Of a stretch of 64,000 bases of DNA, positions 44,247-50,858 are shown one piece after another. Location: contig OZ244852.1 of the NCBI GenBank assembly GCA_965220965.1, positions 1 to 64,000 of the forward strand. Reading direction: 5' to 3'. Both the position numbers and the translations under genes were made by a program. The notes beneath the pieces were generated by a model that saw only the letters and a program-made list of their open reading frames with translations, did no database searches and was not told the origin of the DNA. Every line of letters starts with the position of its first letter. Position 1 is the stretch's first letter. The DNA is from Candidatus Marinacidobacterium sp. GTDB lineage: Bacteria; Acidobacteriota; Vicinamibacteria; Marinacidobacterales; Marinacidobacteraceae.

Positions 44247-46190
44247 TCAGCGGGCCGAGGTCGGGGTCTCGCCGGCGAGGATGCGCTGGAAGACGCCCAT
44301 CTCGATGTTCCCGCCCGAGACCACGCAGACGAGCTTGCGGGGACGGTCCTCCTCTCCGGCGCGGCGCGGAACCCGGTCCTCGAGGACGGCGGCCAGCGGG
44401 CAGGCCCCGGCGCCTTCGGCGATGACCCGGGCGCGGGCGGCGAGGACCCGGACCGCCTCGGCGACCTCCTCCGGGGAGGTCACCAGCGGCTCGGCGAGCA
44501 GCTCGCGGACCAGCGGCCACATCGGGTCGAGAACGGTGTTGCCTCCGATCCCGTCCACGAAACTGGGGCTCGTGTCGATCCAGCGGGGGGCGCCGTCGGC
44601 CACCGCCGCCGAGACCTTGGCTGATGTCGAGACCTCCACCGGGTGGACCCGGGCGCCCGAGCCCGACTGACGCAGCGCGCTCGAGATCCCGCAGCTCAGC
44701 CCGCCGCCGCCGAACGGGACGAGCACCGCGTCCACCTCCGGTAGGTCCTCGAGGATCTCGAGGCCGGCGGTGCCGTTGCCGGCCATGACCGCCACCTCCT
44801 CCACCGGGTGGACGAACCGGGCGTCGAAGCCGGGGTGGCGGTGCGAGACGATGGCCTCCCACCACTCGGCGAACGGGGCCACCACGATCCGGGCGCCGAG
44901 CGCGGCGATCGCCTCGCGCTTGTTCTCCGGGGAGGTCTCGGGCACCACGACGGTGCACTCGACGCCCCGTTGGCGCGCCATGAACGCCACCGCCTGCGCC
45001 CAGTTGCCGGCGCTCGCGGTCATCACCCCGCGCTTCAGGTCGTCCTCGCCAAGCGAGTCGAAGAGCGCCGCCGCGCCGCGGATCTTGAACGAGGCGAACG
45101 GCTGGATGTTCTCCAGCTTGAGCCAGACCTCGTCCGGCCCGTTCCCCGGGAGCCGGACCATGGGCGTCCGCACTGCGAACGGGGCGATCGCCCGGCGAGC
45201 GGCCTGGATCGACTGGATCGGGATCATGCGCGGCGCGGAGTGTACGGGCCGGAGCCGGTCCCGGCGCCGCTCGGCGGCGGCCACCGTTCGCGGCCAGCTC
45301 TTCTTCAGCAGGACCGACATCCCGCGGTCCCGGAGCAGGCGCCCGCCGGTCTGGCACTTCGGGCAGTAGTTGAACTCGTTCTCGGCGCGGCGCACCCGCT
45401 GGACCCTGGTCCCGCAGTCGGGACACGGTTGGCCGAAGCGGCCGTGGACCGCCATCCCCTCGCGGAAGGCGGTGACTCTCGTGGGGAAGCCGTCGCCGCA
45501 CTCCTCGGCGAGCCGGGAGGTCCATTCCGTCAGGACCGAGACGGTGGCCTCGTGAAGCCGGGCGGTCTCCTCCGGGCTGAGGTTCCGGCACGGCTTCATC
45601 GGCGAGAGCCGCGCCGCGTGGAGGATCTCGTCCGACCAGGCGTTGCCGATCCCGGCGAATCGGGCCGGCTCGGTGAGCGCCCGCTTCAGCGTCCGGGTGG
45701 AGCCCGCCAGCCGGGCGGAGAACGCCGCGAGCGTCGAGCCCGGAACCTCGAGGCCACCGCGGTCGAGTTCCTCGAGCGCCGCCTTGCCTCGGCCCAACCG
45801 GATCGAGGCGCGCTTCTTCCGGCTGCGCTCGCGAAGCCGGAGCGCCCCGCCCTCCGGGCCGTCGCGGTCCGCCGGCCCGAACCGCCACTCGGCCAGGATC
45901 CCCCGCGGCGAGAGCCGGGGCTCGTCGCGGCGGCTCCCGGCAGGCGTCCACGAGAATCGGCCGGCGATCGCCAGGTGGATGGCGAAAAAGTGCTCTCCCT
46001 CGAACTCGAGCGCGAGCTGTTTGCCGATGCGGCGGACGTCCGTGGCCACGAGGCCCACGAGGTCCTCCGGCGGCGGGGCGACCGAGGCCAGCAGGTGGGG
46101 GGAGGCCACGCGGAAGCGGGTGAGCCGGGTCCCGAGGATCCGCCGCCGGATCGCTTCGCGGTAGACCTCGAGGTCGGGAAGCTCGGGCAA
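44247..46190 (-). CDS. in-frame fusion: Fpg/Nei DNA glycosylase (46190 to ~45230) plus PLP-dependent threonine/serine dehydratase-family enzyme (ATG 45227 to 44247)
   Basis: Fpg part: MPELPD, RIGK, H2TH GIGNAWSDEIL, Zn finger CPDC..CPKC. Dehydratase part: KLENIQPFASFKIRGA, SAGNWAQ, PFGGGGL, SGGN. No stop between them. Confidence 0.85.
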   Translation of the reverse strand: MPELPDLEVYREAIRRRILGTRLTRFRVASPHLLASVAPPPEDLVGLVATDVRRIGKQLALEFEGEHFFAIHLAIAGRFSWTPAGSRRDEPRLSPRGILAEWRFGPADRDGPEGGALRLRERSRKKRASIRLGRGKAALEELDRGGLEVPGSTLAAFSARLAGSTRTLKRALTEPARFAGIGNAWSDEILHAARLSPMKPCRNLSPEETARLHEATVSVLTEWTSRLAEECGDGFPTRVTAFREGMAVHGRFGQPCPDCGTRVQRVRRAENEFNYCPKCQTGGRLLRDRGMSVLLKKSWPRTVAAAERRRDRLRPVHSAPRMIPIQSIQAARRAIAPFAVRTPMVRLPGNGPDEVWLKLENIQPFASFKIRGAAALFDSLGEDDLKRGVMTASAGNWAQAVAFMARQRGVECTVVVPETSPENKREAIAALGARIVVAPFAEWWEAIVSHRHPGFDARFVHPVEEVAVMAGNGTAGLEILEDLPEVDAVLVPFGGGGLSCGISSALRQSGSGARVHPVEVSTSAKVSAAVADGAPRWIDTSPSFVDGIGGNTVLDPMWPLVRELLAEPLVTSPEEVAEAVRVLAARARVIAEGAGACPLAAVLEDRVPRRAGEEDRPRKLVCVVSGGNIEMGVFQRILAGETPTSAR

Positions 46191-46285: not shown

Positions 46286-47068
46286 TTGTCCGAGAGCCAG
46301 TCCAGTTTCGCCGGCCGCGTCGCCATCGTCACCGGAGCCTCCAGCGGGATCGGCCGCGCCACCGCCGCCGCACTGGGCGCCGCCGGAGCCTCGGTCGCGA
46401 TCGCCGCCCGCCGCCCGGAGCGCCTCGAGGCGCTGGCGGGCGAGATCGAAGCCGCCGGCGGCGCCGCCCTTCCGCTGGCCGGGGACGTTACGGACCCGGG
46501 TTTCCGGTCCCGCCTCGTCGGGGAGACGGTGGACCGGTTCGGCGGCCTCGACCACCTGGTGAACTCGGCGGGAGTCATCGCCTTCGGCACGATCGAGGAC
46601 ACGACGCTCGAAGGCTGGCGCGGCATGTTCGCCCTGAACGTGGAGGCGGTCTTCGGGCTGATGAGCCTCGCGGTCCCGCACCTGCTGAAGCGGAGCGGCA
46701 GTGTGGTGAACGTGTCCAGCGTGAACGGGATGCGCTCCTTCCCGGGAGTGCTCGCCTACAACTCGAGCAAGTCGGCGCTGGACCAGCTCACCCGTTGCTC
46801 CGCCCTGGAGCTCGCGGCGAAGGGCGTCCGAGTGAACTCGGTGAACCCGGGCGTCACCCGGACCGAGCTCCACACCGCCGGCGGCCTCGACGCCGAGCGC
46901 TACGCCGCCTTCCTCGAGCGCAGCAAGACGACCCATCCCATCGGACGGGTGGGCACGCCGGAGGAGGTCGCGGGAGTCGCGCTCTTCCTGCTCTCGGACG
47001 CGGCGGCGTTCCTGACCGGAGTCACGATCCCGGTGGACGGCGGACGGCACCTGACCTGCGCCCGGTAG
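46286..47068 (+). CDS. SDR family oxidoreductase
   Basis: TGASSGIG, NSAG, NVSS, YNSSK, VRVNSVNPG, PVDGG. Confidence 0.93.
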   Translation: MSESQSSFAGRVAIVTGASSGIGRATAAALGAAGASVAIAARRPERLEALAGEIEAAGGAALPLAGDVTDPGFRSRLVGETVDRFGGLDHLVNSAGVIAFGTIEDTTLEGWRGMFALNVEAVFGLMSLAVPHLLKRSGSVVNVSSVNGMRSFPGVLAYNSSKSALDQLTRCSALELAAKGVRVNSVNPGVTRTELHTAGGLDAERYAAFLERSKTTHPIGRVGTPEEVAGVALFLLSDAAAFLTGVTIPVDGGRHLTCAR

Positions 47069-47184
47069 GTCGGGGGCGCGGCAGGGTGGCTCAGCCGCTG
47101 CGGCGCCCGATTCGAGCTTCGGATCTGCGGGATGACGCGCCGCTCCGCGACACCTTCCTGAAGTCAGCCGAAGGGTCGGCCCCC

Positions 47185-47718
47185 TCAAGCGTTCGCTTCG
47201 CGCCGCAGGTTCCTTGCGGTGGGGGCGGCGCGACCAGGTCCCGCGTCGCGATGGACCCGATCGTTCATCGCCCCGATCAGATCCTGGGGCGGAAGCGGTC
47301 TCCGCTCGGCCCGGGCGCTCGCATCGAGGGCGCGCCGTGTCGCCGGCCTGCTCACTGCGCCGCGTCCGAGGCGCGCGCCTGCTTCCTGGTATTCCTCCTC
47401 GGCGAGAGGGTCGAAGGGCGACCGGCCGTGGGACACATCGAGGAGACGGGAGCGGTTGCGCTGCGTGTCGCCGGAATCGGCCCGGCGGACGACCTCCAGG
47501 ATCGCCATCAGGCGCCGCTCCAGGGCGGGGTTCATGGGCCTGCCGCTGACCCAGAAGAGCACGCTCTGTCGGGAGACTCCGAAGAGTTGCGCAAGTTGCG
47601 CCCAGGTCAATGCTGACCTGCGGCGCAGTTCGGAGATCGCCCGGCTTGTGCTGAGGCCGGCAGCCCGGGCGACGGCTGCGCCCGGTCGACCTGAGGCGGT
47701 CGGATGGTCGTTCGTCAT
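47185..47718 (-). CDS. XRE-family helix-turn-helix protein
   Basis: ATG at 47718. ISELRRRSALTWAQLAQLFGVSRQSVLFWVSG is a Cro/C1-type HTH. Confidence 0.75.
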   Translation of the reverse strand: MTNDHPTASGRPGAAVARAAGLSTSRAISELRRRSALTWAQLAQLFGVSRQSVLFWVSGRPMNPALERRLMAILEVVRRADSGDTQRNRSRLLDVSHGRSPFDPLAEEEYQEAGARLGRGAVSRPATRRALDASARAERRPLPPQDLIGAMNDRVHRDAGPGRAAPTARNLRREANA

Positions 47719-47719
47719 C

Positions 47720-47950
47720 TCAGTCGCTTCCGGCGGCGTCGCCAGTCGCGGCCTGCGCGCGGAGGCGTTCGAGCGCCTCCTCGGCGTAGCCGATGACCGC
47801 CCCTTCGTATTCGGCGACGACGCGTTCGAGGAGCGGGATGGCGCGGGTCTCCCGGAACTCGGCGAGCTGGAAGAAGAGCGTGATCGCGAGTCCGGGCGCG
47901 GGGAAGTAGCGGTCCTCGAGCGAGCGCTCCGCCAGCCGTTTCCGCCCGGC
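47720..47950 (-). pseudogene. start-less gene fragment with a HEAT/PBS-lyase-like helical repeat
   Basis: Hand-translated AGRKRLAERSLEDRYFPAPGLAITLFFQLAEFRETRAIPLLERVVAEYEGAVIGYAEEALERLRAQAATGDAAGSD*. Host-like G/C third positions. No ATG/GTG/TTG start (only CTG at 47935). Stop lies 1 nt before the HTH ATG. Confidence 0.55.
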
Positions 47951-47980
47951 TGTCCTGTTGCGGTGGGAGCTGCGCGCCCT

Positions 47981-48238
47981 TCAGGCCTCACAGTAGTCCT
48001 GACACACGTTGTAGTGCAGGCCGCAGTACAACAGATCCAGGTCGTAGTCCGCCCAGCACTGATCCCGGTCGGACTGGCTTGTGGCCTGACTCAGGCAACT
48101 CGTGCGCGTGGACTGCGCGTTCCATCTGCACGTCCAGTATTCCGAGACGCAGAGCTGACAGAGTTGCGCCGTGGATCGCGTCGGGAGAGTCAATGCCACG
48201 GCAGCCCCCAGGGCCAGGCCCGCTATGAGCCGGATCAT
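47981..48238 (-). CDS. small secreted cysteine-rich protein (85 aa, 8 Cys)
   Basis: Signal peptide MIRLIAGLALGAAVALTLPTRSTA|Q. Mature part C-x2-C-x6-C-x10-C-x12-C-x10-C-x6-C-x3-C. Confidence 0.8.
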   Translation of the reverse strand: MIRLIAGLALGAAVALTLPTRSTAQLCQLCVSEYWTCRWNAQSTRTSCLSQATSQSDRDQCWADYDLDLLYCGLHYNVCQDYCEA

Positions 48239-48256
48239 TTTCGTGGCGGGTCGCCA

Positions 48257-48694
48257 TCAAGAAGGCGGGCGACCTCTTCGGGGGGGGTAGCCCGCGTCGA
48301 GGAAGATCCGGGCGGCCCTCTCCTCCTTCGCGCGGATCCTTCGCCGGAGCGCGTCCATCGTGAACCACTCGGCCGGCTGCGTCCGGATGTCCGCGATCAT
48401 TCGTTCCAGACCATTCCGGCGCATGTAGGCGATGTAGTCCTCGGACCGGCCGGCTTCCCTCCACGCCTTCGCCCTTCGGTCAAAGTCTGCCCGGGTCCGT
48501 TCCTCAAGCGCCTCCCGATGCGCCAGCGAACCGGGGGCGACGCCTCCGTCGCCTCCGGGGCCGGACGATCGCCGCGTCACATTCGGAGCGGGAAGCGTTG
48601 TGGGCGGCTCCCCCTCCGGAATCGGACCGCACGCCACCACGGTGATTGGCCCCGCAGCCACCGCTGCGAGGACCGCGAGAGCAATTCGGTTCAC
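48257..48694 (-). CDS. hypothetical lipoprotein (C-terminus probably frameshifted at a C8 tract; corrected end 48235)
   Basis: GTG at 48694 after an AGGGAGG RBS. Lipobox-like VVAC, Pro/Gly linker, helical C-terminal domain. Confidence 0.72.
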   Translation of the reverse strand: MNRIALAVLAAVAAGPITVVACGPIPEGEPPTTLPAPNVTRRSSGPGGDGGVAPGSLAHREALEERTRADFDRRAKAWREAGRSEDYIAYMRRNGLERMIADIRTQPAEWFTMDALRRRIRAKEERAARIFLDAGYPPRRGRPPS

Positions 48695-48865
48695 AGACCT
48701 GTACCTCCCTTGGGACGCCCTGGGCGCATTGGTCGGGGCAGGCGACGCCTCCCACGACATCCCGCGCCGGCGCCGTGTGCGCCGGCGGCTTCATGCCCTG
48801 AGACCCTGTTCATGCCATCACCCCTGAAGGCGACACCCGGCCGCTTCCCCCAGCGGCTCACTGTG

Positions 48866-48894
48866 GGTCTAGCGCAGCGCTACACGGTTGTCAA
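48866..48894 (-). promoter_or_regulatory. sigma70-type promoter with palindromic operator for the 48.7-47.2 kb cluster
   Basis: TTGACA(48894-89)-N17-TAGACC(48871-66). Perfect palindrome TAGCGC-A-GCGCTA at 48870-48882. Confidence 0.65.
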
Positions 48895-48955
48895 GTGACC
48901 TGGGCCATCGGCCATCGGGGCATCAGGGAGCCGCCTCCGCGACAGACACCGCCGA

Positions 48956-48985
48956 TTGACAGGTTCCGCGCCCGGCCCGTAGTCT
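48956..48985 (+). promoter_or_regulatory. sigma70-type promoter for the CocE/NonD gene
   Basis: TTGACA(48956-61)-N18-TAGTCT(48980-85). Confidence 0.65.
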
Positions 48986-49052
48986 CGGGCCTTCGCCCGG
49001 AGGCGGTCCGACGAGAGCCGCCTTGCCCTGGGCGACGCGCGGGAGGCGACGG

Positions 49053-50858
49053 ATGGCTTCGAAGAGCACGAGGATCCTGATCGGGCTGGGCTCGTTTGCG
49101 GTCGCGCTGATGGTCAGCGCGAGCGCGGCGGCGCAGCCGGTGAGTTGCGAGGAAGTCATGGTCCCCATGCGGGACGGCGTGCAGCTCGCCACCGATGTCT
49201 ACATGCCGGTGAACCAGGGGGACGGCCCGTTCCCGGTCATCCTCGAGCGCACGCCCTATAACAAGGGCGACTGCGACAACGAGCACGCGCTCTACTTCGC
49301 GTCGCGCGGCTACGTCGCGGTCCGTCAGGACGAGCGCGGCCGCTACGACTCCGAGGGCGTCTACTACTGGCTGCTCGACGAGGGCTGGGGCGAGCGTCAG
49401 GACGGCTACGACACGATCGAGTGGGCCGGAACCCAGCCCTGGTCCACCGGGAAGGTCGGCACGATGGGGCTGTCCTTCACCTGCTTCAACCAGTACCTGA
49501 CCGCGCCGACCCGGCCGCCGCATCTGGCCGCGATGTTCTGCGCTCACTCGGCGTCCAACGCCTACAAGGATCTCTACTGGGCGGGCGGGGCGCTCCACAT
49601 GATCATGCCCACCTGGCTGCTGACCCAGAACGAGATGGTCCAGCCGGTGCGGCTCTACGACCCCGGGCGGAGGGGCGGCTACGTCGGCGGCGAGGCGACC
49701 TGGCTCGAATGGCACCAGCGGCGCCTCGAGACCGGGGCCTCCATGTCCCAGAGCATGATCACCACGATGATGACGGACATGATCGAAAACCCGTACTACA
49801 ACGACTACTGGCGGCAGTACGCGGTGGACGAGCACTGGGACGAGATCGATGTGCCGATCTTCCACTACGCCAGTTGGTACGACCGGTATCCGCACTCGCA
49901 GGTCAAGCACTACAACGGCATCCGGACCCAGGGTCGTCCGGGCGCCCGCGACAGCCAGAAGCTCTATATCGGCCCCTGGATCCACGGGGCCGGGATGGTC
50001 ACGAACCGCGTCATCGGCGACATGGACTTCGGCCCGGAAGCGGCGATCGACTACAACGGCCTCCGCCAGCGGTGGTTCGACTACCACCTGAAGGGCATCG
50101 ACAACGGCGTCATGGACGAGCCGCCGGTCGAGATCTTCGTCATGGGCGCGAACACCTGGCGCCACGAGAACGAGTATCCGCTGGCCCGCCAGGTGCTGAC
50201 CGACTACTACTTCCGGGCGGACGCTTCCGGCTCGGTGGCGTCGCTCAACGACGGGACGCTTTCCACGGAGCCGCCGGGGGACGAACCGTCGGTCACCTAC
50301 GCCTACGACCCCCGCGACCCGGTTCCCTCGATCGGCGCCGATCTGTTCGTCCGGCCGAACGGGGCGCAGGACCACCGCCCGGCCGACGTCCGGAGCCTCA
50401 CCTTCACGACCCCGGTGCTGGACCAGGATGTCGAGGTGACCGGCCTTCCGATGGTCGAGCTCTGGGCCTCATCGAGCGCGGTGGACACCGACTGGACCGT
50501 GGCCCTCACCGATGTCCACCCCGACGGCTACTCGCAGATCCTGCGGCAGAACATCCTGCGCGCCCGCTACCGGGAGGGAGACGAGGCGCCCGTCCTGATG
50601 ACTCCGGGCGAGGTCTACCGCTTCCAGATCTGGATGTACCCGGTCTCCAACCTGTTCAAGGCCGGCCACCGCATCCGGCTTACGGTGTCGAGCAGCGCGT
50701 TCCCCAAGTGGTATCCGAACGGCAACACCGGCCGGGAGATGAACGAGGACCTGCCGGTGATCATCGCCAACAACACCGTCTACCTCGACGCCGACCGCCC
50801 CTCGAAGGTCGTCCTGCCGATCATCCCGGCGGGGAGCGCCGCCGCCGAACCGCAGTGA
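49053..50858 (+). CDS. secreted CocE/NonD family hydrolase (peptidase S15)
   Basis: Signal peptide, VPMRDGVQLATDVY, RTPY, QDERGRYDSEG, QPWSTGKVG..GLSF, SWYD, GPWIH, PepX C-terminal domain. Confidence 0.92.
   Translation: MASKSTRILIGLGSFAVALMVSASAAAQPVSCEEVMVPMRDGVQLATDVYMPVNQGDGPFPVILERTPYNKGDCDNEHALYFASRGYVAVRQDERGRYDSEGVYYWLLDEGWGERQDGYDTIEWAGTQPWSTGKVGTMGLSFTCFNQYLTAPTRPPHLAAMFCAHSASNAYKDLYWAGGALHMIMPTWLLTQNEMVQPVRLYDPGRRGGYVGGEATWLEWHQRRLETGASMSQSMITTMMTDMIENPYYNDYWRQYAVDEHWDEIDVPIFHYASWYDRYPHSQVKHYNGIRTQGRPGARDSQKLYIGPWIHGAGMVTNRVIGDMDFGPEAAIDYNGLRQRWFDYHLKGIDNGVMDEPPVEIFVMGANTWRHENEYPLARQVLTDYYFRADASGSVASLNDGTLSTEPPGDEPSVTYAYDPRDPVPSIGADLFVRPNGAQDHRPADVRSLTFTTPVLDQDVEVTGLPMVELWASSSAVDTDWTVALTDVHPDGYSQILRQNILRARYREGDEAPVLMTPGEVYRFQIWMYPVSNLFKAGHRIRLTVSSSAFPKWYPNGNTGREMNEDLPVIIANNTVYLDADRPSKVVLPIIPAGSAAAEPQ

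Follow-up and report, generated by a model that had tools for sequence, protein, structure and literature searches.

The minus strand of the 64,000-nucleotide stretch of DNA analysed here (the window) carries a gene for a putatively exported mini-protein with eight cysteines and, 18 nt upstream on the same strand, a gene for a lipoprotein that is predicted to bind it. Our preferred reading, to which we give a probability of roughly 0.55, is that the mature peptide is a disulfide-zipped periplasmic hairpin tethered via the lipoprotein, the two forming an accessory envelope module. An initial annotation had proposed a secreted 61-residue mini-protein with near-mirror cysteine spacing, and its open reading frame, signal peptide and spacing were all reproduced; the upstream lipoprotein gene was absent from that annotation.

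The hairpin gene lies at 47981..48238 on the minus strand and comprises 85 codons and a TGA stop, the protein running from MIRLIAG to CEA. Its first 24 codons (48167..48238, minus strand) specify a Sec-type signal peptide with the charged n-region MIR, the 15-residue hydrophobic core LIAGLALGAAVALTL and the c-region PTRSTA, followed by the codons of the 61-residue mature eight-cysteine peptide (47984..48166, minus strand). Judged by eye, the precursor has the Sec/signal peptidase I layout with small residues at -3 and -1, and the same n/h/c layout, ending in small-x-Ala ahead of the first cysteine, was seen in all 17 aligned hairpins except P0006 and P0005, the two sequences without a complete N-terminus. 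From this signal peptide we infer Sec export of the precursor; Acidobacteria are diderm, so that such export would end in the periplasm. The mature N-terminal glutamine to which the initial annotation drew attention is present here, and is replaced by valine in the clade of P0005, P0015 and P0016. The activities suggested for the peptide (bacteriocin, inhibitor, pheromone or host effector) found no direct support: the hairpin is acidic (pI 4.2, with 8 D+E vs 3 K+R; family range 4.1-5.5), and Sec export in a diderm would take it to the periplasm only.

The hairpin open reading frame is a real gene under purifying selection. When the mature part was compared with its homologue in G012, a genome of the same family (locus L002), dN was 0.19 and dS 1.23 (about 1.2), and the resulting dN/dS of 0.15 indicates purifying selection on the protein. 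The signal peptide gave a dN/dS of 0.71, and the differences between the two genes fell on the three codon positions in the proportions 11/11/23. The G+C content by codon position in the hairpin frame was 0.55/0.52/0.80, highest at the third position (GC3), which is the direction to be expected; the flanking housekeeping genes have a GC3 of 0.93-0.94, above the 0.80 of the hairpin, and the hairpin/lipoprotein region has 62-63% G+C vs 72% in the window. Many long open reading frames in the window are artefacts, two of them overlapping the hairpin frame. Scanning of 46900-49200 returned no sigma-70-like promoter and no intrinsic terminator, a repeat search of the same interval yielded nothing beyond short, low-identity pairs, and Rfam gave 0 matches across the whole window.

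The eight cysteines of the mature peptide are spaced 2-6-10-12-10-6-3. On a helical wheel, those of helix 1 fall at 120-200 degrees and those of helix 2 at 240-280 degrees, each arc spanning at most 80 degrees, which places the cysteines of each half on one helix face, just as the initial annotation had them. It had also suggested a pattern search, and the core pattern C-x6-C-x10-C-x(8,16)-C-x10-C-x6-C occurred once in the organism's own 3.25-Mb genome when all six frames were cut at stop codons, which yielded 35,819 segments of at least 40 aa; the cysteine pattern is beyond chance.

A word-index search found one relative of the hairpin, with 65% identity, and a HMMER profile was run against 1.84 billion cluster representatives, of which 5 reached E<=1e-3 and 4 also passed E<=1e-10. 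After adding cluster members the family comprised 17 sequences including that of the window, 15 of which are complete over the cysteine region. Conservation of the cysteines among homologues, on which the initial annotation had made its reading depend, was observed: all eight are kept in 13/15 complete members, the exact 2-6-10-12-10-6-3 spacing occurring in 11 and 2-6-10-12-10-6-4 in 2. The other two have seven cysteines. P0002 has a tyrosine in place of Cys2 and lacks C2 only; P0008, the weakest member (E 6e-4), has lost both C1 and C8 and has one additional cysteine. C3-C6 are invariant in 17/17 sequences, and the CxxC at the helix N-terminus often takes the form C-Q-H-C in the family. In a set of 61 genomes of relatives the hairpin was present in two at E<1e-30, its own genome and G012, the remaining matches being at chance level (E>0.005); G036, flagged as unpublished, is one of the genomes in this set that gave no significant match. 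Of 401 genomes sampled evenly across the phylum, just one, its own, had the hairpin, and an alignment-based genome scan for related loci recovered only the G012 contig. The hairpin family is therefore rare, small and narrowly distributed. A metagenome locus (L010) considered as a further relative was rejected, being a DNA-methyltransferase-like frame that matches a short word.

AlphaFold2, run with a three-sequence alignment, predicts a helix-loop-helix hairpin with helices at residues 23-51 and 55-84 (mean pLDDT 82.7; 96-98 over residues 31-70), in agreement with the antiparallel helical hairpin initially proposed. The cysteines are in antiparallel register, the residue numbers of 48+61, 37+72 and 30+79 each summing to 109 and those of 27+83 to 110, and such near-constant sums are the contacts expected of an antiparallel hairpin. 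The genome encodes, in one 434-aa frame (G000:C1:518598-519773; L014, L016), a VKOR domain (68.9 bits) and a Thioredoxin_4 domain (70.2 bits), both above the Pfam cut-off, as well as a second Thioredoxin_4 protein; no DsbB was found in the 94%-complete genome. VKOR-thioredoxin fusions substitute for DsbB/DsbA, and the presence of this frame together with the absence of DsbB makes it likely that the fusion serves the organism as its periplasmic disulfide oxidase. Given the predicted hairpin, the antiparallel cysteine register, the joint loss of C1 and C8 in P0008 and this putative oxidase, the four nested disulfides of the initial annotation (C1-C8, C2-C7, C3-C6 and C4-C5) are likely; the register and the joint loss fit them, and the bonds themselves we infer. 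The odd cysteine number in 2/15 complete members (P0002 and P0008) counts against a strict nested-pair rule.

The statement that the hairpin belongs to no nameable bacterial family held up, with no curated match in Pfam or NCBIfam and no significant match to the hairpin family in Pfam, NCBIfam or PADLOC. The only recurrent Pfam match was PF07337, in 5/17 members with a best E of 0.0025, the window's own protein having none at E<=1; COX17 (E 0.88) and COX6B (E 0.96) each appeared in 1/17 members, far below the cut-off. NCBIfam and PADLOC returned matches at chance level only; those to Shiga-toxin B models were dismissed, with E about 0.1, 17-18 residues aligned and scores far below the cut-off. 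The possibility of a known metal-binding domain had also been raised, and no metal-binding family in Pfam or NCBIfam matched. A PDB sequence search with the hairpin gave nothing below E 0.9, and the best ESM Atlas scores, 0.82 and 0.77, are below the useful range. With the predicted structure, Foldseek against the PDB gave a best E of 1.1, and VIA-align reached at most a Z of 9.0, at which designed bundles and ATP-synthase c subunits were level; such generic hairpin matches are typical background for helical models.

The partner lipoprotein gene (48257..48694, minus strand) encodes 145 aa from a GTG start and matches the database copy P0003, also of 145 aa; a Shine-Dalgarno-like GGGAGG (48704..48709, minus strand) lies 9 nt upstream of the start codon. 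The lipobox consensus of bacterial lipoproteins is [LVI][ASTVI][GAS]C; residues 19-22 read V-V-A-C and agree with it, with Cys22 as the lipobox cysteine, and A21 and C22 are nearly invariant among 21 aligned sequences. A Pro/Gly-rich linker of ~35 residues, modelled at low confidence (disordered), is followed by an Arg-rich helical domain (57-133), in which AlphaFold2 predicts helices at 57-80, 85-105 and 113-133 with pLDDT 88-98. A profile search returned 19 clusters at E<=0.01, all with E<=2e-44, and the 21 aligned lipoproteins have a mean identity of 62% per column and share the lipobox and a C-terminal P-x-E-x-V-x-x-L tail. Fold searches with the lipoprotein returned generic helical pieces only (best Z 7.3), and neither the hairpin nor the lipoprotein has a curated family model.

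The hairpin is predicted to bind the lipoprotein. For a complex of lipoprotein residues 50-145 and hairpin residues 25-85, each modelled with its own alignment, the ipSAE was 0.84 (0.84, 0.85 and 0.72 in individual runs), with three controls at 0.01, 0.00 and 0.00. The pLDDT in the complex was 84-89 for the hairpin and at least 83-84 for the partner, and at least 5% of contacts recurred between runs. In a benchmark that is only rough for user-supplied alignments, this mark was reached by 116/157 solved complexes and 2/215 mismatched pairs. The modelled interface involves hairpin residues 28, 31, 34-35, 38 and most of 59-78, which except for C72 belong to the faces without cysteines, and lipoprotein residues 67-136, and it would bring an acidic hairpin against an Arg-rich lipoprotein domain, i.e. 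surfaces of complementary charge. Neither side of the predicted interface is more conserved than the rest of its protein, mean column entropy being 1.25 vs 1.22 elsewhere for the hairpin (p=0.54) and 1.02 vs 0.82 elsewhere for the lipoprotein (p=0.90).

Judging from the sequence, the hairpin and lipoprotein genes are a linked, co-transcribed pair. In G012, a lipoprotein homologue lies immediately upstream of the hairpin gene with an ATGA stop-start overlap; adjacency was read directly from sequence in the window and in G012 (a 58,264-base contig), and is elsewhere indicated indirectly by equal contig size. By this measure, 8/16 non-window hairpins sit on contigs equal in size to lipoprotein-family contigs (5,994; 11,598; 55,063; 58,264; 75,265; 86,134; 658,676; and 3,986,123). 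As for the 8 unmatched hairpins, six are on contigs of at most 3.8 kb and two (12,873 and 5,559) are without a lipoprotein counterpart. Conversely, genome G005 has the lipoprotein but neither a Cys-rich frame following it nor a hairpin match elsewhere in its sequence, and 25 lipoprotein-bearing contigs of at least 15 kb equal no hairpin contig in size. These lone lipoproteins indicate that the lipoprotein is the wider family, the hairpin being an add-on subunit that a minority of lineages possess. In G012, a gene for a 382-aa sigma-70 family protein with regions 2 and 4 (L009 2164..3312) lies ahead of the pair in divergent orientation; no sigma-70 family gene neighbours the pair in the window.

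A homopolymer scan located a run of eight C (48280..48287, minus strand; G8 on the plus strand) at the 3' end of the lipoprotein gene. Three-frame translation showed that after this run the window's lipoprotein ends in PPRRGRPPS and a stop, unlike 20/20 relatives, and that the alternative frame continues as PPEEVARLL...K to a TGA overlapping the hairpin ATG, in agreement with 20/20 relatives. The ATGA coupling is thus lost in the window through a frameshift, and the hairpin ATG has no Shine-Dalgarno motif ahead of it. Over 47700-48900 the window shows 0 differences to contigs of two runs, which come from two studies and either of which may be its source, so that the extra base in the C run is probably real in the strain. 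The frameshift falls beyond the predicted interface, the last lipoprotein contact being residue 136.

Turning to the genomic setting, an SDR gene (46286..47068) and an S15 peptidase gene (49023..50858) flank the pair and are syntenic in two genomes of the same genus (76-83% DNA identity), and the DNA between them is unrelated, its length being about 2.0 kb in the window, 4.4 kb in G002 and 3.7 kb in G001. The slot in G002 (L023) holds an AAA ATPase as well as a STAND NTPase of 924 aa that has a wHTH and TPR repeats, that in G001 (L024) an ABC-three-component (ABC-3C) system consisting of a DUF2326/CTD10 protein, a small open reading frame and an HNH protein, and that of the window (47070..49020) the hairpin and lipoprotein genes, an HTH gene and a start-less open reading frame. 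By its gene content, the slot is a variable hot spot in the genus that houses defence systems in the sister genomes. Its variability, together with the lower G+C content, suggests that the hairpin-lipoprotein pair is an accessory module, probably acquired laterally, in a recombination hot spot.

The start-less frame of 86 codons (47720..47980, minus strand) has no ATG, GTG or TTG and follows in frame right after the hairpin TGA. Longer frames in G021 and G022 resemble it in their C-terminal part (40-41% identity), the G021 counterpart being an intact 536-aa lipoprotein-like protein with a HEAT-like end, and the start-less frame is therefore a 3' gene remnant left by rearrangement; no similarity of it to the STAND-TPR protein of G002 was detected. 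Read-through of the hairpin TGA into this frame was considered and rejected, the downstream frame being an unrelated HEAT-like lipoprotein remnant. Directly downstream of the remnant lies the HTH gene (47185..47715, minus strand; 176 aa, XRE-type, with HTH_3 and HTH_28 just below the Pfam cut-off), which has no counterpart beside the G012 cassette and whose product shows a weak NCBIfam likeness to MqsA- and HipB-type antitoxins (E 0.0035-0.05). The genes within about 4 kb of the hairpin are those for a UDG-like protein, an Fpg-PALP protein, the SDR, the HTH protein, the lipoprotein, the S15 peptidase and a gamma-glutamyltranspeptidase. The Fpg-PALP frame (44247..46190, minus strand; 647 aa) begins with an Fpg/Nei DNA glycosylase part (residues 1-281; Fapy_DNA_glyco, H2TH and zinc finger) and continues with a PALP domain (338-626), and is either an unusual fusion with a PLP-dependent enzyme or a read-through of two genes.

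Taken together, these data lead us to propose the following course of events for the tethered periplasmic hairpin. The Sec machinery would export the precursor and signal peptidase I would cleave it after S-T-A, upon which the 61-residue product would fold in the oxidising periplasm as an antiparallel two-helix hairpin. Its inner helix faces would be zipped by C27-C83, C30-C79, C37-C72 and C48-C61, these disulfides probably being introduced by the VKOR-thioredoxin fusion of the genome. The acidic, aromatic-rich hairpin would then dock on the basic helical domain of the lipoprotein to form a membrane-tethered heterodimer. Such tethering would keep the hairpin at the envelope and prevent it from diffusing away.

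The same pair could also be a toxin-immunity module, in which the hairpin would be a released, disulfide-stabilised bacteriocin-like peptide on a glycocin-like scaffold, the lipoprotein an immunity protein sequestering it at the producer's envelope, and the hairpin-less lipoprotein genes orphan immunity genes. Tight gene linkage and a predicted tight complex would suit such a module, as would a lipoprotein more widespread than the hairpin, the patchy distribution of the latter (2/61 relatives at E<1e-30, 1/401 in the phylum sample), its low G+C (62% vs 72%; GC3 0.80 vs 0.93-0.94 in flanking genes), a slot occupied in G002 by a STAND-NTPase/TPR pair and in G001 by an ABC-3C system, and lipoprotein interface residues that are, if anything, more variable than the rest. 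A putative immunity gene standing first is, however, an unusual order, and no outer-membrane route, PCAT, ABC transporter or lysis gene lies nearby; the peptide is anionic across members (pI 4.1-5.5), and the selection acting on the hairpin is plainly purifying, without signs of diversification. Glycocins do show that hairpin-shaped bacteriocins held by nested disulfides occur in bacteria (PMC12457901). Genomic context and lone lipoproteins thus favour the toxin-immunity interpretation, but acidic charge, the absent export route and plain purifying selection oppose it, and we regard it as unlikely. A bolder version appears to us somewhat more doubtful still: a new envelope system in which a Sec-exported, unglycosylated four-disulfide alpha-hairpin would act as a bacteriocin or an intercellular signal and be captured by a dedicated lipoprotein serving as immunity protein or receptor, hairpin-less lipoproteins then being orphan immunity genes or listeners.

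A role in metal binding would require the cysteines to stay reduced, for instance to form Cu(I) thiolate clusters of the kind known from copper storage proteins; the hairpin could then dimerise to a four-helix bundle and act as a periplasmic metal buffer or chaperone. Eight cysteines on the inward faces of two helices are compatible with this, as is the CxxC at the helix N-terminus, often C-Q-H-C with its histidine, and the absence of both C1 and C8 from P0008 could just as well reflect one lost metal site. Yet the peptide would be exported by Sec into a compartment with a VKOR-thioredoxin oxidase, the exact antiparallel i+j register suits covalent rungs, the adjacent genes include none for metal resistance or metal transport, and no Pfam or NCBIfam metal family matched, COX17 reaching only E 0.88 in 1/17 members; we therefore consider metal binding very unlikely. 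A similarly low likelihood is given to the module being an acquired cassette that is decaying or silent in this genome, with a frameshifted lipoprotein tail, lost translational coupling and little or no product. Decay would explain why the lipoprotein C-terminus after the C8 run differs from 20/20 relatives and has lost the nearly invariant P-x-E-x-V-x-x-L tail, why an 18-nt gap without a Shine-Dalgarno motif precedes the hairpin ATG, and why the adjoining DNA holds a start-less gene remnant. Against it, the hairpin frame is intact with all eight cysteines kept and the frameshift lies past the predicted interface (last contact residue 136); the identical sequence in two runs of two studies supports the base call and is silent on expression.

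Compared with known systems, the tethered hairpin is closest in design to helix-loop-helix peptides held by nested disulfides. The helices of glycocins have a C-x6-C ... C-x6-C spacing, and C30-x6-C37 and C72-x6-C79 are in register here and would form the corresponding disulfides; the connecting loop of the hairpin is moreover Ser/Thr-rich. Glycocins such as sublancin 168, glycocin F and thermoglycocin are described as bacterial helix-loop-helix peptides with two nested disulfides, RiPPs whose leader is removed by a C39-peptidase ABC transporter and whose loop receives S- or O-linked sugars from a glycosyltransferase encoded in the cluster (PMC12457901). In contrast, the hairpin has a Sec-type signal, no glycosyltransferase gene among the genes within about 4 kb and no ABC transporter nearby. 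It also has four rungs vs the two or three of glycocins, helices of about 28 residues, an acidic composition and a lipoprotein partner, and no sequence similarity to them was detected.

The initial annotation had likened the peptide to eukaryotic alpha-hairpinins and twin-CX9C proteins, a likeness that stands for the shared design but not for the spacing, the number of rungs or the Pfam models. Plant alpha-hairpinins are likewise antiparallel helical hairpins held by nested disulfides, with a C-x3-C ... C-x3-C motif; they differ in having two disulfides, plant precursors and a mostly cationic character, and the hairpin here has one C-x3-C, formed by its last pair. In the mitochondrial intermembrane space, an oxidising compartment equivalent to the periplasm, twin CX9C (CHCH) proteins likewise form helix-loop-helix folds with nested disulfides between facing helices, whereas the hairpin has x2/x6/x10 spacing with no x9, four rungs instead of two, and Sec-dependent export. 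[quoted passage not shown] The lack of a glycosyltransferase or transporter, the Sec signal, the different cysteine spacing and the absence of any significant model match thus place the hairpin outside all the families compared, and a literature search on bacterial four-disulfide helical hairpins brought up papers on plants, venoms and methods but no comparable family from bacteria.

What is known, then, is the nested-disulfide two-helix design; what is new is the proposed four-rung, Sec-exported hairpin and its dedicated lipoprotein partner. Plants, mitochondria and the glycocins of Gram-positive bacteria provide established examples of disulfide-zipped helical hairpins, which are hardly described as Sec-exported proteins of diderms. 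If the predicted complex is real, it would constitute a compact, probably very stable two-protein envelope module of uncultured bacteria labelled as Acidobacteria, and a tractable target for structural work and for the study of accessory envelope modules in soil and sediment bacteria, while the 61-residue scaffold may also be of interest to peptide engineers.
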